Shown here: positions 448 to 24,401 of the stretch, in pieces
Layout of the letters: each line of letters starts with the position of its first letter
Position numbering within the stretch: position 1 is the stretch's first letter
From: a virus
Taxonomy: Duplodnaviria > Heunggongvirae > Uroviricota > Caudoviricetes
Reading direction: 5' to 3' (one strand)
Length of the DNA stretch: 24,401 nt
Virus record (IMG/VR): IMGVR_UViG_2526164690_000054
Notes under the pieces: generated by a model
The model's input: only the letters and a program-made list of their open reading frames with translations
What the model was told of the DNA's origin: nothing
Databases searched by the model: none
Program-made: the position numbers and the translations under genes

Positions 448-491
448 CTGCAATAAATAAAAATACAAAGAAAGACTGACTTTTCAGCCTT

Positions 492-1472: not shown

Positions 1473-1474
1473 TA

Positions 1475-1831: not shown

Positions 1832-1833
1832 AA

Positions 1834-2829: not shown

Positions 2830-2830
2830 C

Positions 2831-3211: not shown

Positions 3212-3218
3212 TGATGAG

Positions 3219-6321: not shown

Positions 6322-6542
6322 GCTGCACCTCCGAGATGCTTCATGTTTTTTCCGGAGCGAAAGGCTATAAGCGGCATACTGACGCGGTAATTACGGCCAA
6401 GCGGTTCACAAATCACCTTCTGACATTCACGGTCAACCAGGCTAACACGTAGAACATGCCCTGCAGGCGTGGTGTACCACTGACCGGGGCGAGGACAACG
6501 GAAAGTCTGATTGGTAAATCGTTTGAAAATATTCCGGATCAT
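6318..6542 (-). CDS. hypothetical small basic Cys-containing protein
   Basis: 74 aa; ATGA overlaps with both the upstream stop and the downstream start, so it sits in a coupled operon chain. Confidence 0.5.
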   Translation of the reverse strand: MIRNIFKRFTNQTFRCPRPGQWYTTPAGHVLRVSLVDRECQKVICEPLGRNYRVSMPLIAFRSGKNMKHLGGAA

Positions 6543-8262: not shown

Positions 8263-8293
8263 CGTTCTGTGGTTAAAAATTGAAGGTGTTCTG

Positions 8294-8494
8294 TTAATCT
8301 TTCGGATAGATATCCGGTCTTAAGTCAGATTTCGTAATTGCACCTGACGTGCATTGCTCAAGTTTTTTAGCCAGCACAAAACTGGCTTTTTTATAACCAT
8401 TGAAAACCAGCCGTAAGTAGCCTGGTGTTGAGCCAACTTTTCCGGCCAACTCGCCCTGCTGTTCTTTGGTTAAAGAGTCCCAATACGCTTTCAT
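8294..8494 (-). CDS. Cro-like HTH transcriptional regulator (YdaS/Cro family)
   Basis: Small HTH protein divergent from CI. The start at ATG 8494 is preceded by GGAGG (8505-8509 on plus); the track frame extends to 8518. Confidence 0.65.
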   Translation of the reverse strand: MKAYWDSLTKEQQGELAGKVGSTPGYLRLVFNGYKKASFVLAKKLEQCTSGAITKSDLRPDIYPKD

Positions 8495-8584
8495 ACAATA
8501 TGTACCTCCAATATACATATTACATGATTAATATGAACCTTCAAGATACTTGTACCTTATCGGTACAAAGGTTTTAATTTCTTT
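8495..8584. promoter_or_regulatory. divergent immunity-region promoter/operator
   Basis: 90-bp gap between divergent cro-like and cI genes containing the palindrome TTGTACC-ttatc-GGTACAA (8550-8568) and an extra TGTACC half-site at 8501-8506. Confidence 0.5.
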
Positions 8585-9259
8585 ATGAAAACAGTCCATG
8601 ACATCCGGCGGTCTAACGCCAGAAAACTGAGAGATGGTGTTGGCGGGAATTCTTCCTTTGCCACCATGATTGATCGCGAGCCAACCCAGACCAGCAGGTT
8701 TATGGGAGATGGTGCTACTAAAAATATCGGTGACAGCATGGCACGGCACATCGAAAAATGTTTCGACCTGCCTGTCGGATGGCTTGATCAAGAACACCAG
8801 ACCACGAACATCACAAAAAAACCTGATGTTTCAATCACTAACAAACAAATAACGTTAGTCCCTGTCATATCATGGGTACAGGCCGGAGCATGGAAAGAAG
8901 TTGGCTATTCTGAGGTTGATTTGAGCACAGCAGAAACTTATCCCTGCCCTGTACCCTGTGGCGAAATGACTTATATCTTGCGGGTGATTGGTGATTCAAT
9001 GATTGATGAGTACCGCCCGGGAGACATGATTTTTGTTGATCCCGAAGTCCCTGCCTGCCACGGTGACGACGTTATTGCATTGATGCACGATACAGGCGAA
9101 ACCACCTTCAAGCGATTGATAGAAGATGGAACACAGCGTTATCTCAAAGCATTAAACCCAAACTGGCCTGAGCCTTACATTAAGATTAACGGTAATTGCT
9201 CTATAATTGGTACAGTAATTTTCTCAGGAAAACCAAGAAGATACAAAATAAAGGCCTAA
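8585..9259 (+). CDS. CI-like prophage repressor (HTH plus S24 LexA-like peptidase domain)
   Basis: C-terminal half (VISWVQAGAW...VIGDSMIDEYRPGDMIFVDPE...TFKRLIEDGTQRYLKALNPNWP...IIGTVI) is collinear with the lambda CI cleavage domain, including the Ser (GDSM) region and a Lys. Confidence 0.85.
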   Translation: MKTVHDIRRSNARKLRDGVGGNSSFATMIDREPTQTSRFMGDGATKNIGDSMARHIEKCFDLPVGWLDQEHQTTNITKKPDVSITNKQITLVPVISWVQAGAWKEVGYSEVDLSTAETYPCPVPCGEMTYILRVIGDSMIDEYRPGDMIFVDPEVPACHGDDVIALMHDTGETTFKRLIEDGTQRYLKALNPNWPEPYIKINGNCSIIGTVIFSGKPRRYKIKA

Positions 9260-9270
9260 TCAATATTTAT

Positions 9271-9294
9271 AACCTGCTTCGGCAGGTTTTTTTA
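9271..9294 (+). terminator. rho-independent terminator after cI
   Basis: aacctgc-ttcg-gcaggtt hairpin (7-bp stem, 4-nt loop) followed by a 7-T run. Confidence 0.6.
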
Positions 9295-9297
9295 TAC

Positions 9298-9325
9298 TTG
9301 ACAATGTACCCTTGAGATACATAAT
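9298..9325 (+). promoter_or_regulatory. sigma70-like promoter (PL analogue)
   Basis: TTGACA (9298-9303), 16-bp spacer, CATAAT (9320-9325); directly after the cI terminator and facing the early-left operon. Confidence 0.4.
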
Positions 9326-9742
9326 GTATCTAAAAGAAACATGCCGCAGGCAAGATTAAACAAAATTTGGTTGTAACACGGCGTATGGCACATGCGTCGT
9401 TAGCGGTCTGGGGACGTTAAAGGGGACAATCCACTCCTTGCTCGGGCAAAAAAACCAGGTAGCCGGAATGTGCAAGTCAATGATGATGCTGATAAGACGC
9501 CTAACCAGCGCGGCGATCCGGTTTGACGCCTGGGAAGAGACCAGGGTGCAACGATGAGGGCATTTATGGAACCGCGACAAAGTGTGGTGCCGTAACTTGC
9601 TAAGTGCTCTCAGCGTTGTGGTAATCCGCGAAATGGCGCGGCGGTAAGTATGGCGGGGTTACTCTTTCCCCGTTGAGGACACCGGATTGTCAGGTTGACC
9701 ATACGCCTGAGTGACAACCCCACCACAACAGCCACTGCTTTG

Positions 9743-9875
9743 GCGGTACCAGTTTGTACACTTGCTTCCGGCTGGTACCGCTCTTTTTACAAAACAGAGA
9801 AGAGCATCACCGGACGACGGGCTCATAACCCAATCCAGCCGGGCGGCTGCCACCGCAGGTGTTCTTCTCTGTTTT
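9743..9875 (+). promoter_or_regulatory. structured leader element (terminator-like hairpin plus long inverted repeat)
   Basis: 10-bp inverted repeat gcggtaccag/ctggtaccgc (9743-9752 / 9772-9781) followed by CTCTTTTTAC; then a 14-bp inverted repeat aaaacagagaagag (9791-9804) / ttcttctctgtttt (9862-9875) enclosing a GC-rich 57-nt loop; no convincing ORF across 9330-9925. Confidence 0.3.
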
Positions 9876-9925
9876 GTGGAGAAACCAACCGACCTTGCAG
9901 GGTCGATATGATGAGGAGCAGCAAA

Positions 9926-10288
9926 ATGGCTAGCGAACGCAGTACTGATGTGCAGGCATTTATCGGGGAGCTGGACGGCGGCGTATTTGAAACCAAAATC
10001 GGCGCAGTTCTCAGTGAAGTCGCTTCCGGTGTGATGAACACGAAAACCAAAGGTAAGGTCTCGCTCAACCTGGAAATCGAACCGTTTGATGAGAACCGTG
10101 TGAAAATCAAACACAAACTCTCATATGTTCGCCCGACTAACCGCGGGAAAATTTCCGAAGAAGACACCACCGAAACGCCGATGTATGTCAATCGCGGTGG
10201 TCGACTGACTATTCTGCAGGAAGACCAGGGACAATTACTGACTCTTGCCGGTGAACCTGACGGAAAACTCCGCGCAGCAGGTCATTAA
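9926..10288 (+). CDS. hypothetical prophage protein (first gene of early-left operon)
   Basis: ATG 9926 preceded by GAGGAG (9913-9918); 120 aa; the longer track frame from 9695 has no RBS and runs through the structured leader. Confidence 0.55.
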   Translation: MASERSTDVQAFIGELDGGVFETKIGAVLSEVASGVMNTKTKGKVSLNLEIEPFDENRVKIKHKLSYVRPTNRGKISEEDTTETPMYVNRGGRLTILQEDQGQLLTLAGEPDGKLRAAGH

Positions 10289-10353
10289 TATCGTTCTTAA
10301 TTAACTGATTATTTATCTCATCACTGAATATCTTTATATAGTGAGGACTTATT

Positions 10354-11178
10354 ATGTCTCAGAACTTAGACGCAACCGCAATTAATCAAATCCATGCCCT
10401 TATTTCTGCTCAGGGTGTTAATGAAATTATCAGTAATATTGGTGCCGATGCTGTGGCATTGCCTGAGAATTTCCGCATTCATGATCTGGAAAAATTTAAT
10501 TTAAATCGCTTCCGTTTCCGTGGTGCGCTTTCCACTGCCAGCATCGATGACTTTACCCGTTATTCTAAAGATCTTGCAGATGAAGGCACCCGCTGCTTTA
10601 TCGATGCCGATAATATGCGAGCCGTCAGTGTGCTTAACCTGGGTACTATTGATGAACCAGGTCACGCAGATAACACCGCCACCCTCAAACTGAAAAAGAC
10701 AGCACCGTTTTCTGCTCTGTTGTCTGTTAATGGCGAGCGTAACTCCCAGAAGTCACTGGCAGAATGGATTGAAGACTGGGCCGACTACCTTGTGGGCTTT
10801 GATGCTAATGGTGACACCATTCAGGCAACCAAAGCGGCTGCGGCAGTCCGTAAAATCACAATTGAAGCAAACCAGACCGCTGATTTTGAAGACAATGACT
10901 TCAGCGGCAAACGCTCCCTGATGGAGTCTGTCGAAGCGAAGACCAAAGACATTATGCCAGTGGCATTTGAATTTAAATGCGTTCCGTTTGAAGGCCTGAA
11001 AGAACGTCCGTTTAAATTACGCCTCAGCATTATCACTGGCGATCGTCCTGTACTGGTTCTGCGCATTATTCAGCTGGAAGCGATGCAGGAAGAAATGGCT
11101 AACGAATTTCGTGATCTGCTTGTTGAGAAATTCAAAGACAGCAAAGTAGAAACCTTTATTGGTACTTTCACCGCCTGA
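10354..11178 (+). CDS. DUF2303-like prophage protein (YfdQ-like)
   Basis: 274 aa; size, position and sequence are reminiscent of the CPS-53 prophage YfdQ family; recollection only. Confidence 0.65.
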
Positions 11179-11190
11179 TTTCATTACTGC

Positions 11191-11212
11191 AAATGCCCCT
11201 GCGGGGGCATTT
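11191..11212 (+). terminator. possible hairpin terminator
   Basis: aaatgcccc-tgcg-ggggcattt: 9-bp stem, 4-nt loop, weak T tail. Confidence 0.3.
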
Positions 11213-11306
11213 ATGGAAACGTAATTAACTCAATAATCACCGGATGGTGAGAGCTTCCTTTTAGCAGAATTCAGCGCGGTGCAGCGCATATAAAGTGGAG
11301 AACGAA

Positions 11307-11843
11307 ATGTCATTTATTAAAACTTTTTCCGGGAAGCATTTTTATTATGACAAGATAAATAAAGACGACATCGTGATTAACGATATCGCAGTTTCCCTTT
11401 CAAATATCTGTCGCTTTGCAGGACATCTTTCACACTTCTACAGTGTCGCCCAGCATGCGGTGCTTTGCAGCCAGCTGGTGCCGCAGGAATTTGCTTTTGA
11501 AGCGTTAATGCATGATGCAACAGAAGCATATTGCCAGGACATCCCCGCGCCACTGAAACGACTTCTTCCTGACTATAAACGGATGGAAGAAAAAATAGAC
11601 GCCGTAATCCGTGAGAAATACGGGTTACCTCCTGTTATGAGCACGCCAGTGAAATATGCCGATCTCATCATGCTGGCAACCGAACGCCGCGATCTCGGAC
11701 TTGATGATGGCTCTTTCTGGCCTGTATTGGAAGGTATCCCGGCAACAGAGATGTTCAAAGTGATTCCACTGGCACCGGGCCATGCCTACGGGATGTTTAT
11801 GGAACGCTTCAACGAGTTATCGGAATTACGCAAATGTGCATAA
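11307..11843 (+). CDS. HD-domain phosphohydrolase (YfdR-like 5'-deoxynucleotidase family)
   Basis: HD-domain metal-binding residues (H..H...HD in AQHAV / MHDATEAY); ATG 11307 preceded by GGAG; 178 aa. Confidence 0.75.
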   Translation: MSFIKTFSGKHFYYDKINKDDIVINDIAVSLSNICRFAGHLSHFYSVAQHAVLCSQLVPQEFAFEALMHDATEAYCQDIPAPLKRLLPDYKRMEEKIDAVIREKYGLPPVMSTPVKYADLIMLATERRDLGLDDGSFWPVLEGIPATEMFKVIPLAPGHAYGMFMERFNELSELRKCA

Positions 11844-12712
11844 CTCATGTAGTTAGTTTTTCTGGCGGGAGAACATCTGCATATCTTGTTCACCTGATGG
11901 AAGAACAAAGAAAGGCTGGCAATAACGTCTGCTACATCTTTATGGATACCGGTTGCGAACATCCGCTGACATACCGCTTTATTCGGGAGGTTTTGAAGTT
12001 CTGGGGCATACCGCTAACTGTGTTGCAGGTCGATATAAATCCAGAGCTTGGGCAGCCAAATGGTTATACGGAATGGGAACCAAAGGATATTCAGACGCGA
12101 ATGCCGGTGCTTAAACCGTTTATGGACATGGTTAAAAAGTACGGTACGCCATACATCGGCGGCGCATTCTGTACTGACAGGCTAAAACTCACCCCTTTCA
12201 CGAAATATTGCGATGACCATTTTGGGCGAGGGAATTACATCACATGGCTCGGTATTCGTGCGGACGAACCCCGTAGGCTGAAACCGAAACCTGGCGTCCG
12301 GTATCTTGCCGAGCTGTCAGATTTTGATAAGTCGGATGTTATCCGGTGGTGGCAAAAACAACCTTTTGATTTGCAAATCCCGGAGCACCTCGGGAACTGT
12401 GTTTTTTGCATCAAAAAGTCAACGCAAAAGCTGGGGCTTGCATGTAAAGACGAACCTGGTCTGATGCGGGTTTTTAATGAACTGGTTACAGGCAAACACG
12501 TCAGGGATGGTCATCGCAGAACAGGTAAAGACGTTATGTACCGTGGTCACCTGACGCTTGACGGGATTGCCAGAATGTATGCCGACAGCGACTACAGAAG
12601 TTTGTATCAGGCGATGGTGCTGGCCAAGCGGTTTGATACTGGTTCGTGTTCCGAATCATGTGAAATCTGGGGTGACCAATTGGAGTTGAAATTCGAAGAG
12701 GTCGTGGCATGA
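11834..12712 (+). CDS. PAPS-reductase-family PP-loop protein
   Basis: N-terminal PP-loop SFSGGRTS (SGGxDS-type ATP pyrophosphatase motif); start overlaps the upstream stop. Confidence 0.75.
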   Translation: MCITHVVSFSGGRTSAYLVHLMEEQRKAGNNVCYIFMDTGCEHPLTYRFIREVLKFWGIPLTVLQVDINPELGQPNGYTEWEPKDIQTRMPVLKPFMDMVKKYGTPYIGGAFCTDRLKLTPFTKYCDDHFGRGNYITWLGIRADEPRRLKPKPGVRYLAELSDFDKSDVIRWWQKQPFDLQIPEHLGNCVFCIKKSTQKLGLACKDEPGLMRVFNELVTGKHVRDGHRRTGKDVMYRGHLTLDGIARMYADSDYRSLYQAMVLAKRFDTGSCSESCEIWGDQLELKFEEVVA

Positions 12713-12912
12713 CAATCGTAAAAACCCATACCGGTACCGTGATCACCAAAGATGGCCCGCAGGTAAAAAAATTGCACCAAACAGAGCGGATGTGGGTCGT
12801 TGGCAAAAACGAGTTTTACCACAAAGAAACTGGACGCCGCCATTTTGCAGAAAATACGCGCCGCCGACTGCTGTTAGACACCATCAAGCCTATCGAGGTG
12901 AAGCATGTTTAA
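12709..12912 (+). CDS. hypothetical small phage protein
   Basis: 67 aa; ATGA overlap with the upstream stop. Confidence 0.5.
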   Translation: MTIVKTHTGTVITKDGPQVKKLHQTERMWVVGKNEFYHKETGRRHFAENTRRRLLLDTIKPIEVKHV

Positions 12913-13144
12913 ACAGAACGAAAAAGCTATCGCTCAAATTGCTGATTATATCCCGCGTGCGTGCCGGGGTATGCAGTTGCAGGAAGCCAAAGCGCGCCTG
13001 GAGAAAAAAATTGCGCTCTATATCGATGACGGCTGTGATGCTGCCGTTCTTAACGCGGCGTTCGCGCCAGCTCTTAACAGCCATACGCGGGAGGCTTTTT
13101 TTTCGCGCATCGCAGCGCAGATCCGTAAAGGAGGCAACCAGTGA
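12905..13144 (+). CDS. hypothetical small phage protein
   Basis: 79 aa; overlaps the upstream ORF by 8 nt within the operon. Confidence 0.5.
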   Translation: MFKQNEKAIAQIADYIPRACRGMQLQEAKARLEKKIALYIDDGCDAAVLNAAFAPALNSHTREAFFSRIAAQIRKGGNQ

Positions 13145-13470
13145 GCAAGATTGACTATCAGGCACTGCGTGAGGCGGCAGAAGCAATAAAAGTCGTGGCA
13201 ACGCCGCAAAAATTGCTTGCGTTTCGTATGAAAGTCACACCGCAGGTTGTGCTGGTGCTGCTGGATGAACTAGAAGCTAAAAACAAACGCATTACAGAAC
13301 TGGAAGCGAGGGAAGTTCAATTACCGACTCGCTACGACCTTCGATATGGGCACCCAATAAATGCTGATAAGCGACATGTCATGATACCTAAAGAAAATGG
13401 CAGCTGGCTTTGCCTGATTGACTTAGAACACGCACTACGCGTCGCTGGCATTCGCATCAAAGGAGAGTGA
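13141..13470 (+). CDS. Ead/Ea22-like protein
   Basis: 109 aa; N-terminus MSKIDYQALREAAEAI resembles Ead/Ea22-like prophage proteins as recalled; GTG start overlapping the upstream stop. Confidence 0.45.
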   Translation: MSKIDYQALREAAEAIKVVATPQKLLAFRMKVTPQVVLVLLDELEAKNKRITELEAREVQLPTRYDLRYGHPINADKRHVMIPKENGSWLCLIDLEHALRVAGIRIKGE

Positions 13471-13471
13471 G

Positions 13472-14335
13472 ATGACCACTTTCACCGATAAGAAACTGAT
13501 TAAAGAAATCAAAGAGCGCATAAGCAGCCTGGACGTGCGAGACAATATTGAGCGTCGGGCTTATGAAATTGCATTGACTGCATTGACAGCGGAGCCATTT
13601 GGCATCATCGATACTTCGGGGATTGCGCTCATTAACCATGGTAGTGATGCGTATATTTGGCCCGTCAATTCGATGGAGCCGGGAGATGTACCACTATATA
13701 TCGGCCTGCCACGAATTGCACCGGCATCAATACCAGAGGCCATGACAGAGGAAAAAGCGTACTCAAATGTACAAACGAGCTGGCAGGATGCGAAATATTA
13801 CGCTACTGGCTGGAATGCCTGCCGCGCCGCCATGCTTCAGGCCAGAAACTTTCGGGAAAATAAGAATTCGTCAACCAATAATTTTCGGGAAATCGCGGAA
13901 ACGTCAACCAACTATCCGGTAATTCCTAGTGAGGTGTTGTCCGCAATCCAGAAGGTTGCCAAGATTCGTGCCGATTTCGATGATTTTGACGGTGACAGGC
14001 GAGGTATCGGTGATTATCTGGATGAGGCTGAGCAAGAGCTTATCGTTACCATTAACAAATATGCCAGTCAGTTGGCAGCAGAACCTATAGCGCCTAATGA
14101 CGTTCGAGAGCAGACAGCCATTCCGCAAGTTCCGGTAACTCCGGATGGTTGGATAAGCTGTAGTGAGCTAATGCCGAACGACGCACAGTGGTGCGTAGTG
14201 AACACAGAATACGGGTATTACGTGCAATGCTGGTCTGAAGGTCAAGGGTGGCTTGGTGATGATATCAGCATCCCTGAATGCGATGTAACCCACTGGATGC
14301 CTCTACCAGAACCGCCGCAGGAGGTGAGTCAATGA
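13472..14335 (+). CDS. DUF551-domain prophage protein
   Basis: 287 aa; C-terminal WISCSELMPND...THWMPLPEPP is the characteristic DUF551 signature. Confidence 0.6.
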   Translation: MTTFTDKKLIKEIKERISSLDVRDNIERRAYEIALTALTAEPFGIIDTSGIALINHGSDAYIWPVNSMEPGDVPLYIGLPRIAPASIPEAMTEEKAYSNVQTSWQDAKYYATGWNACRAAMLQARNFRENKNSSTNNFREIAETSTNYPVIPSEVLSAIQKVAKIRADFDDFDGDRRGIGDYLDEAEQELIVTINKYASQLAAEPIAPNDVREQTAIPQVPVTPDGWISCSELMPNDAQWCVVNTEYGYYVQCWSEGQGWLGDDISIPECDVTHWMPLPEPPQEVSQ

Positions 14336-14415
14336 GTTGGCCTGAAGCATTTGCAATTGTAGGTGTTGCAATATCGATTGCGCTGATTATTTTTTCGATT
14401 TGCCGCTGGGGATAA
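14332..14415 (+). CDS. small hydrophobic peptide (27 aa, single predicted TM helix)
   Basis: Not in the ORF track (<60 aa). ATG overlaps the upstream stop (ATGA) and is preceded by AGGAGG at 14318-14323; sequence MSWPEAFAIVGVAISIALIIFSICRWG. Confidence 0.4.
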   Translation: MSWPEAFAIVGVAISIALIIFSICRWG

Positions 14416-14419
14416 TCTC

Positions 14420-14662
14420 ATGTTCGCACTTATTCAACGCGGGCAAATATACACGGACAGGGCCGGATACCCTGTGGTGATTACTCGCTGTACGGACCGC
14501 TCTGTGTTCTTTCGACGTATGGACGGACACTCCGGGCGGGTATGCATTGGTGAGTTCAACTGCCTGTTCGAACATATTGACCACCAGCAGTATTGCAAAA
14601 TCCTGGCGGACACTGAGCAGGAAAAGCACCTGAAAAAATTGCGCGCAATGCAACGGAGGTGA
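14420..14662 (+). CDS. hypothetical small phage protein
   Basis: 80-aa ORF, coding-like composition, inside the operon. Confidence 0.5.
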   Translation: MFALIQRGQIYTDRAGYPVVITRCTDRSVFFRRMDGHSGRVCIGEFNCLFEHIDHQQYCKILADTEQEKHLKKLRAMQRR

Positions 14663-14665
14663 TAC

Positions 14666-14812
14666 ATGCATACGGTTTTTGAGTTATGGGTTCGCAAGAC
14701 ATTCGGCAATCGCTATGACCTGACGCGAGATGTTGACGGTTTCTACTGTCGTGAAATTGTGAAACGAATGTTTGAAGTGTGGTGTCACTGTCGTGGGCTG
14801 AATGTTGTGTGA
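14666..14812 (+). CDS. hypothetical small Cys-containing protein (48 aa)
   Basis: Not in the ORF track; ATG 14666 preceded by ACGGAGG (14654-14659) with 6-nt spacing. Confidence 0.4.
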   Translation: MHTVFELWVRKTFGNRYDLTRDVDGFYCREIVKRMFEVWCHCRGLNVV

Positions 14813-14820
14813 GGTGAACT

Positions 14821-15030
14821 GTGGGGCTGGATTGCGTACCTATATCAACCTACTGCCGCAACGCGGGAGAAACGGTTGATGCCGTTAACAAACGGATACA
14901 AAGAGGAATATGGAAAGAAGGGGTACATGTATTAAAAGTCGACGGGGTTAAAGAGCGTTGGGTCGACTTAATAGAGGTTTCAAAATGGGCAAGAAAGAAC
15001 AAGGATTATTATCTCTGCCAAGAGGAGTAA
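14821..15030 (+). CDS. putative excisionase (Xis-like)
   Basis: 69-aa ORF immediately upstream of and overlapping the integrase gene; rough similarity to lambda Xis in the winged-helix region. Confidence 0.5.
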   Translation: MGLDCVPISTYCRNAGETVDAVNKRIQRGIWKEGVHVLKVDGVKERWVDLIEVSKWARKNKDYYLCQEE

Positions 15031-16160
15031 CTATTCGTAAGCATAAAACTGCTTCAACACTAGTTATCACTTTCACATATAAAGGGGTTCTTTGCAGGGA
15101 GCCCCTATCTCGGCTTGAGGCAAATACACGTGGTATAAAATATGCTGAGCGCCTGCTAGGGGAGATACAAAATCAGATCGCCAGCGGAACGTTTGAATAT
15201 GCGAAATATTTCCCCAATTCCAAAAAACTGGAGTTATTCGGTGTAGTAAAGAAAACCAAAAATATTAAGTCCTATCTTGATGAATACCTGAAAATTTGCA
15301 TAAACCGTAATCTGTCGCCGTCAACCATTGGCGGTTACGAAAAATGTCTATCAGCACTATCAGAACTACATAAACTACATGTAACAGAATTGACGCCTGC
15401 GATACTAAAAAATTGGATAGCCAGCCGAAAAACTAAGCTGAAAACAATCAGGAATAACCTGTCATTTCTGCGCAGCGCCATTGATGAAGCTGTTACGGAT
15501 GGCCTGCTGACCATTAACCCGGTAACCCTCGTCAGCGCCAGCCGGTACCACGTGATCGACAGTAGCCCGAGCGCCGACGATTACGAGGTTGACCCGTTCA
15601 CGCCAGCGGAGACCCTTGCCATTTACCAGAGCTGCAGGTACAGGGAATGGGAAAACCTGTTCCGCTTTGCTTTCAATACAGGTCTGCGGAGCTCAGAACT
15701 GTGCGCGCTGCGCTGGGCTGATCTCGACACCATCGCGAACACAGCCCACGTTCAGGCGGCCAGTGTCGTAGGGGTACTTAAAGGCACCAAGACAAAAGCC
15801 GGTACCCGTAAGGTGGAGCTGAACAGTGAGGCGCTGGCAGCCCTGCAGGCGCAGAAGCAATACACCTTTATGAAAAGTGAGTTCATATTCAGCGATCCGA
15901 AAACGGGAGAACCCTGGACGAACGCCGACGCTATCCGTAAAAAAGCATGGGTGCCGACCCTGAAAAAAGCTGGTGTGCGCTACCGTAACCCGTACCAGAC
16001 GCGCCACACATTCGCCACCAGACACATTAGCCAGGGTGTAAACCTTTTCTGGCTTGCCGGGCAGATGGGGCATAAGGGGCCGGAAATGCTGTTCCGCAAT
16101 TACGGTAAATACCTGGCTGAATACGATGGTAAAACGTCTATAAATGTTGTGTCAAGCTGA
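14985..16160 (+). CDS. int: tyrosine recombinase / phage integrase (lambda Int family)
   Basis: C-terminal catalytic signature (RHTFATRH...H...Y in YQTRHTFATRHISQGV...GHKG...FRNYGKY); ATG 14985 preceded by AGAGG; track frame starts at TTG 14958. Confidence 0.85.
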   Translation: MGKKEQGLLSLPRGVTIRKHKTASTLVITFTYKGVLCREPLSRLEANTRGIKYAERLLGEIQNQIASGTFEYAKYFPNSKKLELFGVVKKTKNIKSYLDEYLKICINRNLSPSTIGGYEKCLSALSELHKLHVTELTPAILKNWIASRKTKLKTIRNNLSFLRSAIDEAVTDGLLTINPVTLVSASRYHVIDSSPSADDYEVDPFTPAETLAIYQSCRYREWENLFRFAFNTGLRSSELCALRWADLDTIANTAHVQAASVVGVLKGTKTKAGTRKVELNSEALAALQAQKQYTFMKSEFIFSDPKTGEPWTNADAIRKKAWVPTLKKAGVRYRNPYQTRHTFATRHISQGVNLFWLAGQMGHKGPEMLFRNYGKYLAEYDGKTSINVVSS

Positions 16161-16601
16161 GTACATAGGCTTAAGGCTGATGAAAATTAAGAATGAGTCT
16201 ACCATTGCTTTTTGTGAAATGAGCTATCATCTATGTTATTGATAGTTTCCATAGTTCATTTAGGTAATTGTAAATTTAATTAAAATCAATAACTTACATC
16301 ATAGCAAGAAATGGAGTGCAAATATATTTCTTGACTTCACGTAAGTTACTTTATTGCAATAAATTTTCACTAGGACAGTGCAAGGACACTGATAGTACTT
16401 GATGAGTCCCAGTACAAACTGTTATCCTGTGCTCCACAAATTCTAAAACTTTTATGTTTTTTTACTTTTCAAGAGCTTAACGTAGGTATCGGCGAAGCAC
16501 CACAACTGGAGTGAACACTATGAAAAAGACACTGACCGTAGGTTTCGGTGAAGGTTAACTACAACCTAAAATTTTAAAACAAACCTCCATTAGCACAATA
16601 A

Positions 16602-16627
16602 GGCCTCCCATGCGGAGGTCTTTTGTT
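16602..16627 (+). terminator. hairpin terminator in int-distal intergenic region
   Basis: ggcctcc-catgc-ggaggtc (7-bp stem with one G-U pair) followed by TTTTGTT; the track ATG at 16610 lies inside the loop. Confidence 0.4.
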
Positions 16628-17398
16628 ATAGGAATCAATAAGATGGCGAGAACATTAGTCAACGTCAGCGCTACAATTTTTGCTCTAATGATGATTGTCA
16701 GAGCACTTTTTACTTATATCTACCCTGGAAAACTACCATTTAGCATCGCCATCATTGATTGGCTGATCGTCATTGCTGGTTCTGGTGCAGCAATATCTTC
16801 TATCTTCTGCTTCATCAAAAAACGCTATCCAGACACTGCAGAATTTCTTCCTATGTTCAGCACTGTTTGTTATGTGATTATCCTTATTGGATATGCAATT
16901 TTAAGGTACACACCGGCCTATCAAACATCGCTTTCGATCATGGTTACAGGAATGCTCGTTGGAATGGGATGGTGGATACAATGCATAACGTCCGCTGCTA
17001 ACACGCGCAGGTCCCACACGCTGAACATGATCATTAACACCCGAACAAGCCCGGAGTACCAAAAACAGCTTCGGAACAGCACCAAATTCTATCGGGGCAT
17101 GCGTTATGTACCACAAGAACTATCAGAGTGGCGCTGCAACCCAGACAAAGAAGAATACAAGAATATGAAGGTCCCCGATGAGTACAGGGATGCCATCAAT
17201 GGCCTTTTATATATTCTTAATTATTTCGAGTTTCTTGCGCAGGGTATCAAGTTCAAGGATTTGGATGACGAATTACTGAGGGAGTGCTTCTCCAGCTTCT
17301 TACGCGGGATAGAACGTCGTGGCTTCCACATGATCTTAGAGTCTCAGAAACAGGACCCTGCAGCCTTTGAAGGAATAATCTACCTTTCAAAAAAATGG

Positions 17399-17407
17399 AA
17401 CGGAACA
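17399..17407. repeat. IS10 target-site duplication (left copy, aacggaaca)
   Basis: 9-bp direct repeat identical to 18737-18745, directly abutting the IS10 end. Confidence 0.8.
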
Positions 17408-18736
17408 CTGATGAATCCCCTAATGATTTTGGTAAAAATCATTAAGTTAAGGTGGATACACATCTTGTCATATGATCAAATGGTTTCGCGAAAAATCAAT
17501 AATCAGACAACAAGATGTGCGAACTCGATATTTTACACGACTCTCTTTACCAATTCTGCCCCGAATTACACTTAAAACGACTCAACAGCTTAACGTTGGC
17601 TTGCCACGCATTACTTGACTGTAAAACTCTCACTCTTACCGAACTTGGCCGTAACCTGCCAACCAAAGCGAGAACAAAACATAACATCAAACGAATCGAC
17701 CGATTGTTAGGTAATCGTCACCTCCACAAAGAGCGACTCGCTGTATACCGTTGGCATGCTAGCTTTATCTGTTCGGGCAATACGATGCCCATTGTACTTG
17801 TTGACTGGTCTGATATTCGTGAGCAAAAACGACTTATGGTATTGCGAGCTTCAGTCGCACTACACGGTCGTTCTGTTACTCTTTATGAGAAAGCGTTCCC
17901 GCTTTCAGAGCAATGTTCAAAGAAAGCTCATGACCAATTTCTAGCCGACCTTGCGAGCATTCTACCGAGTAACACCACACCGCTCATTGTCAGTGATGCT
18001 GGCTTTAAAGTGCCATGGTATAAATCCGTTGAGAAGCTGGGTTGGTACTGGTTAAGTCGAGTAAGAGGAAAAGTACAATATGCAGACCTAGGAGCGGAAA
18101 ACTGGAAACCTATCAGCAACTTACATGATATGTCATCTAGTCACTCAAAGACTTTAGGCTATAAGAGGCTGACTAAAAGCAATCCAATCTCATGCCAAAT
18201 TCTATTGTATAAATCTCGCTCTAAAGGCCGAAAAAATCAGCGCTCGACACGGACTCATTGTCACCACCCGTCACCTAAAATCTACTCAGCGTCGGCAAAG
18301 GAGCCATGGGTTCTAGCAACTAACTTACCTGTTGAAATTCGAACACCCAAACAACTTGTTAATATCTATTCGAAGCGAATGCAGATTGAAGAAACCTTCC
18401 GAGACTTGAAAAGTCCTGCCTACGGACTAGGCCTACGCCATAGCCGAACGAGCAGCTCAGAGCGTTTTGATATCATGCTGCTAATCGCCCTGATGCTTCA
18501 ACTAACATGTTGGCTTGCGGGCGTTCATGCTCAGAAACAAGGTTGGGACAAGCACTTCCAGGCTAACACAGTCAGAAATCGAAACGTACTCTCAACAGTT
18601 CGCTTAGGCATGGAAGTTTTGCGGCATTCTGGCTACACAATAACAAGGGAAGACTTACTCGTGGCTGCAACCCTACTAGCTCAAAATTTATTCACACATG
18701 GTTACGCTTTGGGGAAATTATGAGGGGATCTCTCAG
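17408..18736 (+). mobile_element. IS10 insertion sequence (complete, 1329 bp)
   Basis: Outside end CTGATGAATCCCCTAATGATTTTGGTAAAAATCATTAAG at 17408; inside end ...GGGGATCTCTCAG ending at 18736; encodes the 402-aa IS10 transposase; flanked by a 9-bp duplication. Confidence 0.9.
17515..18723 (+). CDS. IS10 transposase (IS4 family)
   Basis: 402-aa ORF within the IS10 ends; sequence recognised as the IS10/Tn10 transposase. Confidence 0.9.
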   Translation: MCELDILHDSLYQFCPELHLKRLNSLTLACHALLDCKTLTLTELGRNLPTKARTKHNIKRIDRLLGNRHLHKERLAVYRWHASFICSGNTMPIVLVDWSDIREQKRLMVLRASVALHGRSVTLYEKAFPLSEQCSKKAHDQFLADLASILPSNTTPLIVSDAGFKVPWYKSVEKLGWYWLSRVRGKVQYADLGAENWKPISNLHDMSSSHSKTLGYKRLTKSNPISCQILLYKSRSKGRKNQRSTRTHCHHPSPKIYSASAKEPWVLATNLPVEIRTPKQLVNIYSKRMQIEETFRDLKSPAYGLGLRHSRTSSSERFDIMLLIALMLQLTCWLAGVHAQKQGWDKHFQANTVRNRNVLSTVRLGMEVLRHSGYTITREDLLVAATLLAQNLFTHGYALGKL

Positions 18737-18745
18737 AACGGAACA
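18737..18745. repeat. IS10 target-site duplication (right copy, aacggaaca)
   Basis: 9-bp direct repeat identical to 17399-17407. Confidence 0.8.
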
Positions 18746-18998
18746 TCGTTTGTTGAAACCCACCGTTCCAACCCTAATACGGTTGAGCTCGGGGTTCCAT
18801 ATCCTTCAAACGATATGGTTGAAAAAATGGTTCAAGGTCAGCCGTTAATAGATAGCGACGCAGGGCCGGAACTTCAAGTGGCCACTTAATCTCGTTGTAT
18901 GGACCAAGAGAGGACCAGAAAATGCACTCAAAATGCACTTGAGGCATTTTTAAACAGAGAATGCATTGTTATTCAATGGGTTAAGCATTGCTCGGGCA

Positions 18999-19023
18999 CG
19001 GGTTCAACTCCCGCCAGCTCCAC
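18999..19023 (+). other. fragment resembling the 3' end of tmRNA (probable att core remnant)
   Basis: cgggttcaactcccgccagctccac matches the T-arm/acceptor 3' end of E. coli tmRNA as recalled; upstream sequence does not continue as tmRNA and no CCA follows. Confidence 0.5.
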
Positions 19024-19058
19024 TTTTTAGTTGTTTGAAGTTCAATGAAGTCTACTAA

Positions 19059-19090
19059 GCCCACACAGCACAAGCTCTGCGGGCTTTTTT
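19059..19090 (+). terminator. possible rho-independent terminator
   Basis: Imperfect hairpin gcccacacagc-acaa-gctctgcgggc (9 of 11 pairs) followed by T6. Confidence 0.4.
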
Positions 19091-19187
19091 ACGTCTATTG
19101 TCGTCCAGTGAGAATTGCTGAGAACTACGAGTTATGGCACCCTGAATGGGACCCACTAAGAAGGGTCCAAAAACCGAGGGTCCCAAA

Positions 19188-20408
19188 ATGGCAAAAATCG
19201 CTAAGAAGCTCACTGACACTGAAATCAAAAGCACCAAGCCAGCCGATAAAGAAATCAACTTGTTTGACGGTGATGGTCTGATTCTACGAATCGCTCCTTT
19301 GGCGAAAGGAGGCAAGAAAAATTGGTATTTCAGGTATGCAGTACCCGTGAGCAAGAAAAGAACCAAAATGAGCCTTGGGACATATCCTCACCTTACCCTT
19401 GCAAGAGCCAGAGCCTTACGTGATGAATATCTCTCCTTTCTGGCAAATGGTGTTGATCCCCAAATCCATAACAACGATAAGGCGAAGGCATTAAAGAGTG
19501 CTACTGAGCACACTCTCCAAGCCGTAGCGCGGAAATGGTTAGATGAGAAGGTAAAGACATCAGGTATCTCACAAGACCATGCAGCAGACATCTGGCGCAG
19601 CTTAGAGAGAAATGTCTTTCCCGGTCTGGGTAATGTCCCTATCCGACCTAAGCTCTTAAAACAACACCTTGATCCTATTGAGCAACGAGGCGTATTGGAA
19701 ACTCTACGCCGTATCATTTCACGTCTGAATGAAATCTTCCGGTGGGCAGCTACTGAAGAACTTATTGAGTTCAACCCGGCTGACAACCTTGGTCAAAGAT
19801 TCAGTAAACCAAAAAAGCAAAATATGCCTGCCCTTCCCCCAAGCGAATTGCCAAGGTTTATGGAATCTTTGACGAATGCGTCAATCCGGTTGGAAACACG
19901 TATGCTAATTGAATGGCAATTGTTGACATGGGTTCGTCCGGGTGAAGCCGTTCGCGCAAGGTGGTCTGATATTGATACAACCAACAGCATTTGGAACATT
20001 CCTGCTGATTTCATGAAAATGAAAAAGCTTCACAAAGTTCCTTTGAGTAAAGAAGCTTTGCGCATCCTTGAATTAATGAAATCAATAAGTGGGCATAGAG
20101 AATGGGTTTTCCCCAGCATAAAAGCGCCTCTTAATCATATGCATGAACAAACAGCCAACGCAGCTATCATCCGAATGGGGTTCGGAGGCGAGCTTGTAGC
20201 TCACGGTATGCGTTCTATTGCACGAACAGCGGCAGAGGAGTCTGGTAAATTCAGAGCTGAAGTTCTTGAGGCAGCGCTTGCCCACTCGAAAAAAGATGAA
20301 ATTATCGCAGCATACAATCGTGCAGAATATCTGATAGAGCGACAGAGTTTGATGCAATGGTGGAGTGATTACGTTCAAGCTCAAAGATCAAATGCTCTGG
20401 TAGCCTAA
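19188..20408 (+). CDS. P4-type tyrosine integrase (IntA-like)
   Basis: N-terminus AKKLTDTEIKSTKPADKEINLFDGDGLILRI is typical of P4-family integrases; C-terminal catalytic region (HGMRSIARTAA...AHSK...AYNRAEY); ATG 19188 preceded by GAGGG; adjacent to the tmRNA-like att fragment. Confidence 0.85.
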   Translation: MAKIAKKLTDTEIKSTKPADKEINLFDGDGLILRIAPLAKGGKKNWYFRYAVPVSKKRTKMSLGTYPHLTLARARALRDEYLSFLANGVDPQIHNNDKAKALKSATEHTLQAVARKWLDEKVKTSGISQDHAADIWRSLERNVFPGLGNVPIRPKLLKQHLDPIEQRGVLETLRRIISRLNEIFRWAATEELIEFNPADNLGQRFSKPKKQNMPALPPSELPRFMESLTNASIRLETRMLIEWQLLTWVRPGEAVRARWSDIDTTNSIWNIPADFMKMKKLHKVPLSKEALRILELMKSISGHREWVFPSIKAPLNHMHEQTANAAIIRMGFGGELVAHGMRSIARTAAEESGKFRAEVLEAALAHSKKDEIIAAYNRAEYLIERQSLMQWWSDYVQAQRSNALVA

Positions 20409-20932: not shown

Positions 20933-22699
20933 TTATGGTAGCATCATTGATACATAATCCACACCAATCCTTGAGCTATACTGAGACGCTATAGCCTGAT
21001 ATCTTTCTGCATAACCAGTTCTCAGTTGAGATTTAAGTTTGAGTCGGACAGGAACATTTTGCACGTTGCCATCCATATTACTTAAAAACACGGCAGAAAT
21101 AATATTTTTTTCTTCGCCATCAACTGTTGTTCCATGATTCAACACCACCATATAATCAACAACAGGAAGCGTTTTATCCCCTTCGAAAATAGAGAGATAT
21201 TTTCTTTGATTTTTATGCATTACATATATATATTTCGAATGTTCAGCAAATGGCAATGCTTTACTCTGACTGGCGTTAAAAAGCTCCAGAACTTTAATGA
21301 GCCTGTGCGGACTTAATCTTACATGGTGAGGGTCGTTACCCTGAGTAGGAACCAAATCACATGCCGCAGATACACATAAATACCATTTGTTCGACTCTGT
21401 ATCAAAGAAAATAGTGCCAGTAGAAATATGACCATCTTCAAAATTCTTTGAAGACAAATTCATATTTAAAGCATGATACATTTCGTGATAAGTATCATTA
21501 TTTGATGGCAGATCCATTTTTGAAGAGCAATATTGGAGCAATGCAGCAACTCCGCTGTTAGCGTATTCATTTGAATAGCTATCAAAAACACTTTTGATAA
21601 ATTCATCCAGCGTATTATTATTTTTAAGTCTTTGATAAAGCTCTTCTGATAAATTACCAAATACAAAGTCAATATTTCTACATCTAATATCAGGCGAGTC
21701 TGATTTTAATATCTCATTTAACCACGCAGCTTGACCGTAATGATCGTTAGCCAAATGATTTACAAAAGATAAAGCCTCAGCTTCGATTGCATTCTGAATT
21801 TCAGATTTTATTAACTGATAATAAGATGGTTTCCATTCAATGAGAGAATCATTGAGAGTTTGCCAAATCCTATCTCCATCGTTTTCATGATCATCTTGAA
21901 CCTTATGAAATAGGGAGACAAAGATATTACCACATTGAATCCATTTTACTCCGCTTTCATCACCCCGAATGACATTGCCAGATGTGTTGCTAGAAATAAT
22001 TGCATTTCTAGACACAGCATATTCTGCAATCATTTTTGCAATGAAGTTTTTATCCTTTTGATCCTCCAACACAGCATCATCATGTATTAATCTTTTAATT
22101 CTTCTACAAGGCTTACTGTCTTTAATATAGGCTATTATTTCATCTCTTGTGAGAGCTTTATTACCATTATCATTTAAGTTCGGTAATACAACGTCTTCCC
22201 AATAACTTTGGACATCTTCATTATCGTAGTCAATGATCAAGCTGTTGATATCCAGAGCACCTTTGAGAGTCGATGATATCTGCATCCAAACCGTTTCTAA
22301 ATTCTCTCTAGTATATATTACAATCATATTTAAATGATCGGAGTCTTTCAAATCTTGTAATAGTTTAAGTGTTTTATCAGGTGCATTATTATCAAGATGA
22401 TAATCTACAATAATAAGATCTGATTTTCTAATCCGATCCACATCGAAATTAACAGAACCATTGTCAACATCACAAATCATATTTTTAGATTGAAAAAAGC
22501 TCTCAAGAGTAGCGGCTCGTTTAGATGAGTCAATTTTGTTGTAGTCTAAATCAACTTCGTTATTCAACGCCCTGATTGATTCAGAATACGTCAGAAAATC
22601 GTCATCAATCATGACAACGGAACGAATTGCATTTTCGCAGAAAGTTTTCTGGACAAGAGAATTATAATTTGCCACTGTCATATTAGAACTCCACTCCAT
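20933..22699 (-). CDS. receiver-like (CheY-type) N-terminal domain fused to large uncharacterised C-terminal domain
   Basis: 588 aa; N-terminal ~150 aa carries VVMIDDD (acidic pair), DLIIVDYHL (candidate phospho-Asp) and MIVIYT (conserved Thr) with receiver-like spacing; remaining ~430 aa have no recognisable motif; start overlaps the kinase gene by 17 nt. Confidence 0.6.
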   Translation of the reverse strand: MEWSSNMTVANYNSLVQKTFCENAIRSVVMIDDDFLTYSESIRALNNEVDLDYNKIDSSKRAATLESFFQSKNMICDVDNGSVNFDVDRIRKSDLIIVDYHLDNNAPDKTLKLLQDLKDSDHLNMIVIYTRENLETVWMQISSTLKGALDINSLIIDYDNEDVQSYWEDVVLPNLNDNGNKALTRDEIIAYIKDSKPCRRIKRLIHDDAVLEDQKDKNFIAKMIAEYAVSRNAIISSNTSGNVIRGDESGVKWIQCGNIFVSLFHKVQDDHENDGDRIWQTLNDSLIEWKPSYYQLIKSEIQNAIEAEALSFVNHLANDHYGQAAWLNEILKSDSPDIRCRNIDFVFGNLSEELYQRLKNNNTLDEFIKSVFDSYSNEYANSGVAALLQYCSSKMDLPSNNDTYHEMYHALNMNLSSKNFEDGHISTGTIFFDTESNKWYLCVSAACDLVPTQGNDPHHVRLSPHRLIKVLELFNASQSKALPFAEHSKYIYVMHKNQRKYLSIFEGDKTLPVVDYMVVLNHGTTVDGEEKNIISAVFLSNMDGNVQNVPVRLKLKSQLRTGYAERYQAIASQYSSRIGVDYVSMMLP

Positions 22700-24401
22700 T
22701 GAACTGGATCACAAAATTAGCGCCATCTTTTATTAAATAGTTATCGCCTTCATCAGGTTCTGAATACCATATTTTATGATGTGCAACAGCAAGGTTTTCT
22801 CGACATAGATACAGACCTACCCCATGTCCATTTGCTCTTTTGCTATAAAATAGTTCAAATAGTCGCGGGATATCATCGGTATCAATTGCCGGACCAGAAT
22901 TTGCTATGATAACCAAAGAATTCACAAAACCAATCTTTATGAGCCTATTATTTGACAGACTGACCCAATACATTGCATTGTTGATAATATTAGTAAAAAC
23001 AGGATAGATCCTTAATGGTATATCTGTTATTGCGATTTGCTTAAACTCTTCACTAAATTCAATAGTTATTCGTTGCCGTTCGAAACGCTCCCCAAAGAAC
23101 TTCAGGACATAATCCATGATATTTTTTCCAGTTATTCTCTGCCTGGATTGATAACCTGATATTTTCAAAGGTGATAAGAAACGTATTTGTTGAGTAAGCG
23201 ATCTGTGAGCATTTAACGCCAATGAAAAACCAGGGTGTTCTTTTACAGAAGTAGGAAGAGAGTTTAGTCCTCTGGTTACCATAGAATCCATTTCTTCAAG
23301 TTCATGAGATATTATCTCAACACTAATACCTAACTGTGCAAGCGCGTTTAAACTTTTAGCTTTTTCTTCAAAATATGAGCGTTCTTCTTCAGATAATGAG
23401 AATGCTGAATCTAAGTTTATACCTTCAAATAATCTATCGAGACCTTTTATTATTGATTGATATTTGAAAGTTAGGGTATCAACTGACTCAACATATAAAC
23501 TATCGAGCAAATTAAACACATTTTCAATTTGTGAATCATTATCTATTGAATCAACAACTGATATAGTTTTAGCATAATAATCACTTCGATCAACCTTTAT
23601 TTCATCGGCCCATTTTTTTAAAAGAGAATGTATCTTCTCCTCTATCGTGTTATTAAACTTAGTTAGTTTAGAATTAATAATACCTTGATTTTTTTCAAGG
23701 TGATTTTTCGCTGACAATGAAGGCTCAAGTTTATTTAATTCAGAATCAAGTTTATTAATTGCTAACTTCATTTGTAGAATATACGCAGAGAACTCATTAA
23801 ATTTATCTCTGTAGTCTCTATATTTCTCTTCATACATTCCAAGTTTTGGAGGTTTGATAGGCGTTTTAATTTCACTGCGCAACGCATCTAAGTTTGTAAG
23901 ATCACTGTCTATAATTTTAAGATAGTTTAAATCTAACGAACCATCAGTTTTATCAAGCTTAGTTTTCAGCCTTTTAACAGCCTCCAAGGAAGCATCAAGA
24001 ACTGGTGTCTGATTCTTCAAAGCTTCTGAAAAACTTTTTTGTGTTGATTTTCGAGCTTGTTGTTGAGCAGATTTTCTTAACTCTTTTTCACGCTTAACTT
24101 GTTCTAAAAGCTCTTTACGGTCATCAGAACGTGAACCAAAAAATCTATCAGCAAGTTCAGTTAACAAATTAGATATAATAGTTTTCAGTTCTCTTGCAGC
24201 CTGGTTTCTTATGAATCCCTCTCTCCCCGACTTATCTTTCAGCTCTTTATTACTGGATTGAGTAATTCCAATATAACCAAAAATCCTTCTATTAGACCAA
24301 TAATATCGCCCTGCATTCCATGAACGTCTTTCTTCTATCTGGAAGAAATCATTATCTACTCGACCATAAGGTAATACTCTCAAGCTATCCCTAAAAATCA
24401 T
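22683..24401 (-). CDS. histidine-kinase-type protein (HisKA-like H-box plus HATPase_c), 5'-partial at window edge
   Basis: Frame open to the window end; Lys/Glu-rich coiled-coil-like middle; H-box-like GISVEIISHELEEM, N-box NIINNAMYW, G1 IIANSGPAID, G2 GHGVGLYLC in canonical order and spacing. Confidence 0.65.
   Translation of the reverse strand: MIFRDSLRVLPYGRVDNDFFQIEERRSWNAGRYYWSNRRIFGYIGITQSSNKELKDKSGREGFIRNQAARELKTIISNLLTELADRFFGSRSDDRKELLEQVKREKELRKSAQQQARKSTQKSFSEALKNQTPVLDASLEAVKRLKTKLDKTDGSLDLNYLKIIDSDLTNLDALRSEIKTPIKPPKLGMYEEKYRDYRDKFNEFSAYILQMKLAINKLDSELNKLEPSLSAKNHLEKNQGIINSKLTKFNNTIEEKIHSLLKKWADEIKVDRSDYYAKTISVVDSIDNDSQIENVFNLLDSLYVESVDTLTFKYQSIIKGLDRLFEGINLDSAFSLSEEERSYFEEKAKSLNALAQLGISVEIISHELEEMDSMVTRGLNSLPTSVKEHPGFSLALNAHRSLTQQIRFLSPLKISGYQSRQRITGKNIMDYVLKFFGERFERQRITIEFSEEFKQIAITDIPLRIYPVFTNIINNAMYWVSLSNNRLIKIGFVNSLVIIANSGPAIDTDDIPRLFELFYSKRANGHGVGLYLCRENLAVAHHKIWYSEPDEGDNYLIKDGANFVIQFNGVEF

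Follow-up and report, generated by a model that had tools for sequence, protein, structure and literature searches.

Introduction

The locus described here raises the question of what was lost, if anything, when a mobile element inserted into the last gene of a prophage, and of whether that loss was selected. It lies in a 24,401-nucleotide stretch of DNA from a virus of the Caudoviricetes (IMG/VR record IMGVR_UViG_2526164690_000054), referred to in its full length as the window, in which a gene encoding a membrane protein of the DUF4760 family is split by a complete copy of the insertion sequence (IS) IS10. A prior examination of this DNA made without database searches, termed the sequence-only reading, had treated the gene as a prophage accessory gene, or moron, and its interruption as a common fate of a toxic or costly one. 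The account favoured here, which is held with reasonable confidence as a whole, is that an IS10 copy inserted during a burst of transposition into a DUF4760 membrane-protein cassette that is probably gated by translation, the gate consisting of a short upstream open reading frame (ORF), or mini-ORF, and an intrinsic terminator. The features on which this account depends are collected in Table 1.

Table 1. Coordinates of the interrupted DUF4760 gene, its leader, the IS10 copy and flanking features in the window
Feature	Position	Strand	Remarks
Tyrosine integrase of lambdoid prophage	14958-16160	+	Arm-DNA-bind_2 and Phage_integrase (Pfam); WP_000516611.1; start at 14985 in the Prokaryotic Genome Annotation Pipeline (PGAP)
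12-codon mini-ORF, MKKTLTVGFGEG-stop	16520-16558	+	Preceded by GGAG Shine-Dalgarno-like sequence; ends V-G-F-G-E-G-stop
Intrinsic terminator, AAGGCCTCC-CATGC-GGAGGTCTT and T run	16600-16626	+	Ends about 20 nt before DUF4760 start
DUF4760 gene 5' part, codons 1-255	16643-17407	+	Four transmembrane (TM) helices and whole Pfam DUF4760 match
IS-fused ORF, 310 aa	16643-17575	+	255 native and 55 IS10-encoded residues
Left target-duplication copy, AACGGAACA	17399-17407		
Complete IS10	17408-18736	+	Outside end at left; 1329 bp
RNA-OUT antisense RNA	17453-17522	-	Rfam RF00240; reads in the direction of the DUF4760 gene, in antisense
IS10 transposase, 402 aa, intact	17515-18723	+	NF033591, PF01609
Right target-duplication copy, AACGGAACA	18737-18745		
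DUF4760 gene orphaned 3' part, codons 256-302 and stop	18746-18889	+	Holds S256, E259, G271, P275
ssrA (transfer-messenger RNA, tmRNA) 3' fragment, right attachment-site remnant	18978-19025	+	Rfam tmRNA, E 0.008, below gathering threshold
CP4-57-type integrase of next island, outside prophage	19146-20408	+	NF007246, 429 bits; Arm-DNA-bind_3, Phage_int_M, Phage_integrase

A complete IS10 in the last gene of a prophage

The termini of the inserted element form an imperfect inverted repeat, agreeing at 17 of their first 22 positions (CTGATGAATCCCCTAATGATTTT versus reverse complement CTGAGAGATCCCCTCATAATTTC). The window contains exactly two copies of the 9-mer AACGGAACA, both directly flanking the element, and the chance of a 9-bp identity for a given pair is 4^-9; the ends and flanking 9-mers given in the sequence-only reading were correct. 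The transposase ORF starts at IS10 position 108, and its product matches the NCBIfam IS4-family model NF033591 (404 bits against a cut-off of 152) and Pfam DDE_Tnp_1 (PF01609, 87 bits); its RefSeq label is 'IS4-like element ISVsa5 family'. Near the outside end lies a full-length match to the RNA-OUT model RF00240 (98.8 bits against a gathering threshold of 41, E 1e-20). In length, repeats, transposase, RNA-OUT and target duplication, the element thus agrees with the known IS10 (IS10-right of Tn10, of the IS4 family); it is 99-100% identical to thousands of copies, with matches of at least 99% identity in 2833 plasmid records, and is itself without differences from the known element. The copy is complete and apparently functional.

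Deletion in silico of IS10 and one copy of the 9-mer produces an uninterrupted 909-nt ORF encoding 302 residues, bearing out the earlier suggestion that removal of the element would restore a protein of about 300 residues in frame. About 77 complete Escherichia coli genomes, mostly O26:H11, match the reconstructed empty site of 1363 bp from end to end at 100% identity, and the gene is annotated in them as a 'DUF4760 domain-containing protein'; the two flanks are therefore contiguous in other genomes, and the uninterrupted homologues that had been proposed as a check exist. The break falls between codons 255 and 256. The gene span originally proposed, 16610-18889, is right as to the interruption but wrong as to the start, since the ATG at 16610 belongs to the loop that a terminator hairpin forms at 16600-16622; the start at 16643, used by both PGAP and the homologue alignment, is preceded by a Shine-Dalgarno sequence, AGGA, at 16631.

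The early-left genes of a lambdoid prophage and its integrase are located upstream of the interrupted gene, and a remnant of ssrA follows it. In O26:H11 strain 11368 the complete ssrA is found approximately 54 kb to the left, at the opposite end of the same prophage. In this lambdoid prophage, integrated in ssrA, the interrupted gene hence comes last, positioned between the integrase and attR.

A mini-ORF and terminator precede DUF4760 genes

The leader of the interrupted gene was compared with those of its relatives in a survey of 33 distinct leader regions, comprising all loci of the close subfamily for which upstream sequence was available. A mini-ORF ending G-x-G-x-G-stop was found in all 33, whereas, over all frames of all DNA fetched, the background frequency of this motif does not exceed 6e-5 per codon, which for an upstream region of 430 nt amounts to about 0.03. 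Besides that of the window, the peptides include MKMIISVGFGEG, MKNTFTVGFGEG, MRNLEIGYGEG, MKLETGVGAG, MKMLKTGVGEG and MMNVGFGEG. A Shine-Dalgarno sequence of the GGAG type precedes the ATG by 5-10 nt in 31 of the 32 loci listed. While the peptide end stays fixed, synonymous changes are seen in the codons for Gly, Phe, Val and Tyr, and all three stop codons are used, the stop always directly following the third Gly; three of the last five codons specify this residue.

The second component of the leader, a perfect stem of 7-12 bp followed by a T run, is likewise present in 33 of 33 cases, 8-45 nt past the mini-ORF stop and 20-35 nt before the DUF4760 start codon. At least nine different stem sequences are represented among these terminators, all of them perfectly paired, indicating that the hairpin is conserved as a structure.

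Overall, every homologue examined for which upstream DNA could be inspected, except one distant relative, is preceded by an ORF of 7-19 codons. In relatives at 22-36% identity the order is again a mini-ORF and then a hairpin, with related or less strict peptide endings that comprise DGYGIG, DGYGIS, DGIGLG, EGDGYA, EGWGG, SGVEG, IGCEE, SGCNE and STGDI. The ending tracks the clade of the protein, being VGFGEG in Enterobacterales, IGYGEG in the Pantoea/Serratia-like group, GVG(E/A)G in Pseudomonas and DGYGI(G/S) in Acinetobacter, a pattern that would be compatible with co-evolution of peptide and protein. No Rfam family matches the leader region, and a literature search found no description of the peptide or of leader-controlled morons; the architecture of mini-ORF and terminator in DUF4760 cassettes is new, in that no account of it was found.

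The motif is not exclusive to these cassettes. When IMG/VR was scanned with an exact degenerate pattern encoding VGFGEG-stop, 37 matches were obtained, of which 25 lie upstream of DUF4760 genes; the other 12 are mostly in other frames, at the ends of longer ORFs or form the ribosome-binding site of a terminase gene, and a rough estimate puts the number of matches expected by chance in this database at a comparable figure. Two of the cases elsewhere stay odd. At L153:1783-1803, a bare seven-codon ORF (Shine-Dalgarno sequence, ATG, VGFGEG, stop) has a terminator after it but no DUF4760 gene, and at L151:767-787 an ORF of 51 residues containing both IGYGEG and VGFGEG is also followed by a terminator and no DUF4760 gene.

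The DUF4760 protein

The reconstructed protein matches Pfam DUF4760 (PF15956) over residues 106-252 with 59 bits, against a cut-off of 25, as do all 39 of its aligned homologues. Its N-terminal 120 residues form four hydrophobic helices, with loops rich in K and R after the second and the fourth; because of the position of these loops, both termini and the C-terminal domain are predicted to be cytoplasmic, and the product to be an inner-membrane protein. The AlphaFold model, with a mean predicted local distance difference test (pLDDT) score of 88, likewise consists of four N-terminal helices and then a helical domain, and the membrane region and soluble domain described in the sequence-only reading can accordingly be specified as four helices and a cytoplasmic DUF4760 domain. 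Helix 4 continues into a conserved juxtamembrane motif, AAN-RR-HTLN, and the all-helical domain contains the invariant polar residues N193, E196, D206, D208, E214, C215, E224, R225, E233 and Q235.

Database comparisons otherwise gave little indication of function. No other family was found for the protein by profile search of NCBIfam or the PDB, and in PHROGs only families of unknown function were matched. PADLOC-DB 2.0 contains no defence model for the query or its 39 homologues, the sole match of the query being a spurious one to DrmMII (E 0.003). Among 1.84 billion representative proteins the family forms 528 clusters at 50% identity, made up throughout of small proteins anchored in the membrane, and no informative domain fusions were observed in the 150 best of these, all of which are 78-343 residues long. 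One DUF4760 protein of 425 residues (P0002, on a 20-kb Logan contig) continues beyond residue ~267 (…SNPNT) into a C-terminus that is agmatinase-like (PF00491), which probably reflects a deletion or a chimeric assembly.

Two suggested kinships were rejected. An 'RYP' shared after a TM helix with SieA of phage P22 is a coincidence, as comparison of SieA with the family profile gave an hhalign probability of 0.7%, showing the two to be unrelated. The invariant RRxH after TM4 has a spacing of R-x2-H, as opposed to the R-x4-6-H of HEPN motifs, and no HEPN fold is among the matches; the reading as a HEPN-like RNase was dropped.

DUF4760 genes as single-gene morons

Close relatives of the gene are present on 41 IMG/VR viral contigs, and it recurs as a single gene in temperate phages of Enterobacterales, Pseudomonas, Shewanella, Halomonas and Acinetobacter. 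The positions it occupies are diverse. The E. coli homologues directly follow the integrase at the prophage end, beside differing islands or the host gene glaH; in prophages of Pseudomonas aeruginosa and in phage Riah the homologue comes last, with the lysis cassette on one side of it and host queA on the other; in a metagenomic phage the Q antiterminator and the holin are separated by a 71%-identical homologue on the opposite strand; in Acinetobacter phage TRS1 the gene is found between those for tail chaperone and tape measure; and in Pantoea it is located at the prophage end near baseplate genes. Because homologues fill at least four classical moron slots of otherwise unrelated temperate phages, the DUF4760 gene is supported as a mobile single-gene moron, and the accessory position assigned to it by the sequence-only reading is borne out; the function of the protein stays outside this inference. 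The base composition of the gene does not set it apart from its neighbours (44.1% GC, compared with 44.7% for the window and 48.5% for the integrase).

An 81%-identical gene is also found on the chromosome of Dryocola sp. BD613 (L020, L021), beside an integrase remnant and an operon of a cyclic oligonucleotide-based anti-phage signalling system (CBASS) with SMODS, SAVED and Cap2-like genes. This locus has the context of a defence island, with no obvious prophage around it.

Prophages are known to carry small membrane proteins with roles against phage. RexB of phage lambda, which the DUF4760 protein resembles in being a prophage-encoded inner-membrane protein of four helices, is an abortive-infection effector of approximately 144 residues that is without a cytoplasmic domain and requires RexA. 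The moron gp15 of phage HK97, which encodes an inner-membrane exclusion protein, is situated between the tail chaperone and tape measure genes (PMC3594210), exactly the slot occupied by the DUF4760 gene of TRS1. Like DUF4760, HK97 gp15 and P22 SieA are single small add-on genes of prophages with a predicted inner-membrane product (PMC3594210, PMC10883804), but neither has any sequence relation to the DUF4760 protein, which differs in possessing a large conserved cytoplasmic domain. The exclusion morons reviewed are described as carrying a promoter and a terminator of their own and as being expressed from the repressed prophage, whereas the DUF4760 gene stands behind a mini-ORF and a terminator. 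As regards these other signals, good promoter sites of the form TTGAC(A/G)-17-TAnnnT are found upstream at several loci (L027, L017, L116 and L113), and a weak bulged hairpin with a T run can be discerned by eye 3' of the gene stop in the window, at about 18925-18955.

On the basis of this context, the ancestral protein is most likely, as far as plausibility carries, to have been a conditionally produced membrane-acting accessory factor of the prophage, for example one involved in exclusion or abortive infection. The suggestion of the sequence-only reading, that the intact ancestor may be a defence or exclusion factor of the membrane, would be consistent with where the gene lies and with a leader that is off by default. 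It may be ventured more broadly, as a tentative proposal, that DUF4760 cassettes could be membrane modules that phages carry and that are gated by translation, a class not described so far, the protein being a conditional exclusion, abortive-infection or addiction factor and the mini-ORF either a ribosome-sensing leader that would respond to glycyl-tRNA or to release of the peptide after Gly, or a peptide antitoxin or ligand. An equally tentative alternative is that the product is a stress-responsive membrane protein that would aid the lysogen when translation is perturbed, as by a shortage of glycyl-tRNA or by ribosome-targeting toxins. Gating of this type is used by amino-acid operons and inducible antibiotic-resistance genes, and both the three Gly codons at the end of every subfamily leader and the lack of similarity to any defence model would be in keeping with such a role. 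Against it, the protein has no detectable domain of a transporter, enzyme or resistance factor, there is a strong association of the family with temperate phages and moron slots, and the Dryocola homologue neighbours a CBASS operon; hence a contribution to stress tolerance is doubted here.

How the leader could act

Since the terminator lies so close before the start codon, transcripts would reach the DUF4760 gene only by reading through it. The level of read-through would probably be set by translation of the mini-ORF, whether through its Gly codons or through the nascent or free peptide, and the protein would then be made only conditionally or in small amounts. A terminator-gated leader of this kind fits a product that is off by default.

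The arrangement recalls the attenuators of thrL, trpL and hisL, where an intrinsic terminator likewise separates a short translated ORF with a Shine-Dalgarno sequence from the gene under control. The end of the E. coli thrL peptide, G-N-G-A-G-stop, is itself Gly-rich, and the G-rich sequence there forms part of the antiterminator. Attenuators, however, regulate biosynthetic operons rather than a phage membrane-protein gene, and the DUF4760 leader differs from them in lacking a run of one regulatory codon, having only three alternating Gly codons at its very end, in that alternative pairing is not conserved between lineages and in having no Rfam leader match. The G-E-G codons of some lineages form pairs with the segment just past the stop, which in turn can pair with the 5' arm of the terminator, and a three-segment scheme of 1:2, 2:3 and 3:4 pairing can be drawn for two loci (L024 and L023), most clearly for the former (1:2 at -15.6 kcal, z -5.8; 2:3 at -8.0 kcal).

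Three observations weigh against the favoured account. The hairpin formed by the G-rich ORF end and post-stop segment is significant only in some lineages, with the 2:3 pairing mostly weak. In equilibrium folding, a 28-nt ribosome footprint placed at any codon of the mini-ORF leaves the terminator with a probability of about 0.95 in 30 of 31 leaders. Lastly, none of the candidate sites passed a scan for sigma-70 promoters upstream of the mini-ORF in the window, though such promoters are clear at some loci. For a classical three-hairpin attenuator, the pairing is not conserved across lineages and no thermodynamic antiterminator is predicted; equilibrium folding leaves room for a kinetic version, and classical attenuators also fail equilibrium-folding tests. 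As the pairing is missing in many lineages, what is universal is the end of the peptide or the Gly codons in it. There are accordingly three readings: the leader may sense ribosome stalling at the Gly codons or release after Gly, excess peptide may act in trans, or both may apply.

The second of these has been developed into an alternative in which the mini-ORF encodes a trans-acting partner, a labile antitoxin or ligand, that is produced in excess of a membrane effector by virtue of the terminator, the two forming a two-component module. The mccA-terminator-mccB arrangement of microcin C, where a terminator sets the stoichiometry, provides a model. Such a peptide would explain why it is the peptide end, rather than RNA pairing, that is universal, why this end changes with the clade of the protein and why no antiterminator emerges from thermodynamic prediction. 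Nevertheless, 7-12 residues are very few for a specific protein ligand, and the folding result retains little force against leader control while a kinetic mechanism is allowed by the failure of classical attenuators in the same test. A partner peptide is therefore considered unlikely, and translational control of terminator read-through is preferred.

Consequence of the insertion for the protein

The insertion replaces the last 47 residues of the DUF4760 protein with 55 that are encoded by the IS, the new tail starting with the hydrophobic stretch LMNPLMILVKIIKLRWIHIL. All four TM helices and the entire Pfam match (residues 106-252) are retained in the fusion, which is annotated by PGAP and RefSeq as an intact 'DUF4760 domain-containing protein' of 310 residues (WP_024184092.1) with no pseudogene flag.

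The lost segment includes four positions that are invariant (S256, E259, G271 and P275) and two that are almost so (V258 and R262) in alignments of 30-39 homologues extending down to 42% identity. The AlphaFold model is confident over residues 267-295, and the segment forms a bridge to residues 164-165 of the domain (both in model numbering). Because the lost part contains residues invariant in the subfamily and is modelled as packing onto the domain, the insertion is likely to abolish function, a judgement derived from alignment and model. It is tempered by the fact that the truncated protein keeps all of the family-wide conserved domain, so loss of function is not certain.

The opposite possibility is that the 310-residue fusion is still made and works as before or differently. 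The leader and start are untouched, the conserved columns of the wider DUF4760 family end near W252, where the Pfam match also stops, and many distant members terminate within about 10 residues of this position. Yet residues 256-275 hold the four invariant and two near-invariant positions just described in the subfamily with four TM helices, the segment bridging to the domain is modelled at a pLDDT of about 90, the replacement tail opens with a hydrophobic stretch, and RNA-OUT and its promoter pOUT are both directed antisense into the gene; survival of a working protein is thus thought improbable, and loss of function remains the preferred reading.

A recent insertion during an IS10 burst

The distribution of the insertion was assessed by a junction search of 5426 complete E. 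coli genomes and a census of IS10 ends in 20,395 records. The exact left junction was found in only two of these genomes, the bovine O111:H11 strains 88.0502 and 88-19539. Both chromosomes have an IS10 end at 40 or more places, a number reached by just nine of the 20,395 records, the median IS10 carrier having two. Complete E. coli genomes that carry the gene at 99% identity or more number 79; it is uninterrupted in 77, with alleles at 99.9-100% identity, and split only in the two O111:H11 strains. Confined as it is to two IS10-rich strains among 79 carriers, the insertion is a recent event of one lineage, and the genome that received it was passing through an IS10 burst.

The site of insertion is in keeping with this. 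IS10 favours target hotspots with the consensus NGCTNAGCN, as a preference rather than a requirement. By eye, the target AACGGAACA agrees with this consensus at three of the six specified positions; IS10 thus landed in a non-preferred, non-hotspot site, as is expected where transpositions are many.

These data give no sign of recurrent or selected loss of the DUF4760 gene, and the IS10 event is ordinary in itself; it would appear to be a neutral by-product of the burst rather than a selected change. The proposal that extends the sequence-only reading, that the gene was toxic or costly to its host and that the IS10 allele rose by disabling it, is very improbable: an upstream terminator that should hold the gene off by default is what a harmful product would be expected to have, and IS insertion is a common route of gene loss, but 77 of the 79 carriers are intact, many random insertions are to be expected in the two IS10-laden mutant strains, and a break after codon 255 of 302 removes only the final 16% of the protein, sparing the leader, start, TM region and Pfam domain, which would be a poor way of silencing a toxin.

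Neighbouring features

Some features of the surrounding DNA were recorded in their own right. In the prophage of O26:H11 strain 11368 (L128, 3604541-3614161), the type III effector genes espK, espN and nleL are found at the ssrA-proximal end, meaning that accessory cargo is present at both ends of the prophage. Just past the ssrA remnant of the window, the region 19016-19090 matches both ends of the model of the Salmonella small RNA IsrM with 51 bits, far under the gathering threshold of 376, and includes a terminator-like hairpin at 19072-19086.

Further to the right, the CP4-57-type island carries on its minus strand (20933-24401) a pair of genes encoding a 588-residue Response_reg_2 (PF19192) protein and a 572-residue HEF_HK/HATPase_c kinase-like protein. 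The pair is two-component-like, lies on a mobile island and is without a PADLOC model. The edge of the window coincides exactly with the start codon of the second gene of the pair.

Significance

A consideration that tells against assigning a role to the DUF4760 protein is that no functional account of DUF4760 or PF15956 was found in the literature, where the family appears in one entry of a genomic-island table. The IS10 event serves as a caution for annotation, in that RefSeq treats the IS-fused ORF as an intact protein. The invariable leader of mini-ORF and terminator provides a cheap experimental handle on the DUF4760 family, as determining when the gene switches on should reveal its role. 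If the leader does sense the status of translation, it would represent a rare instance of leader-peptide control of a phage accessory gene.

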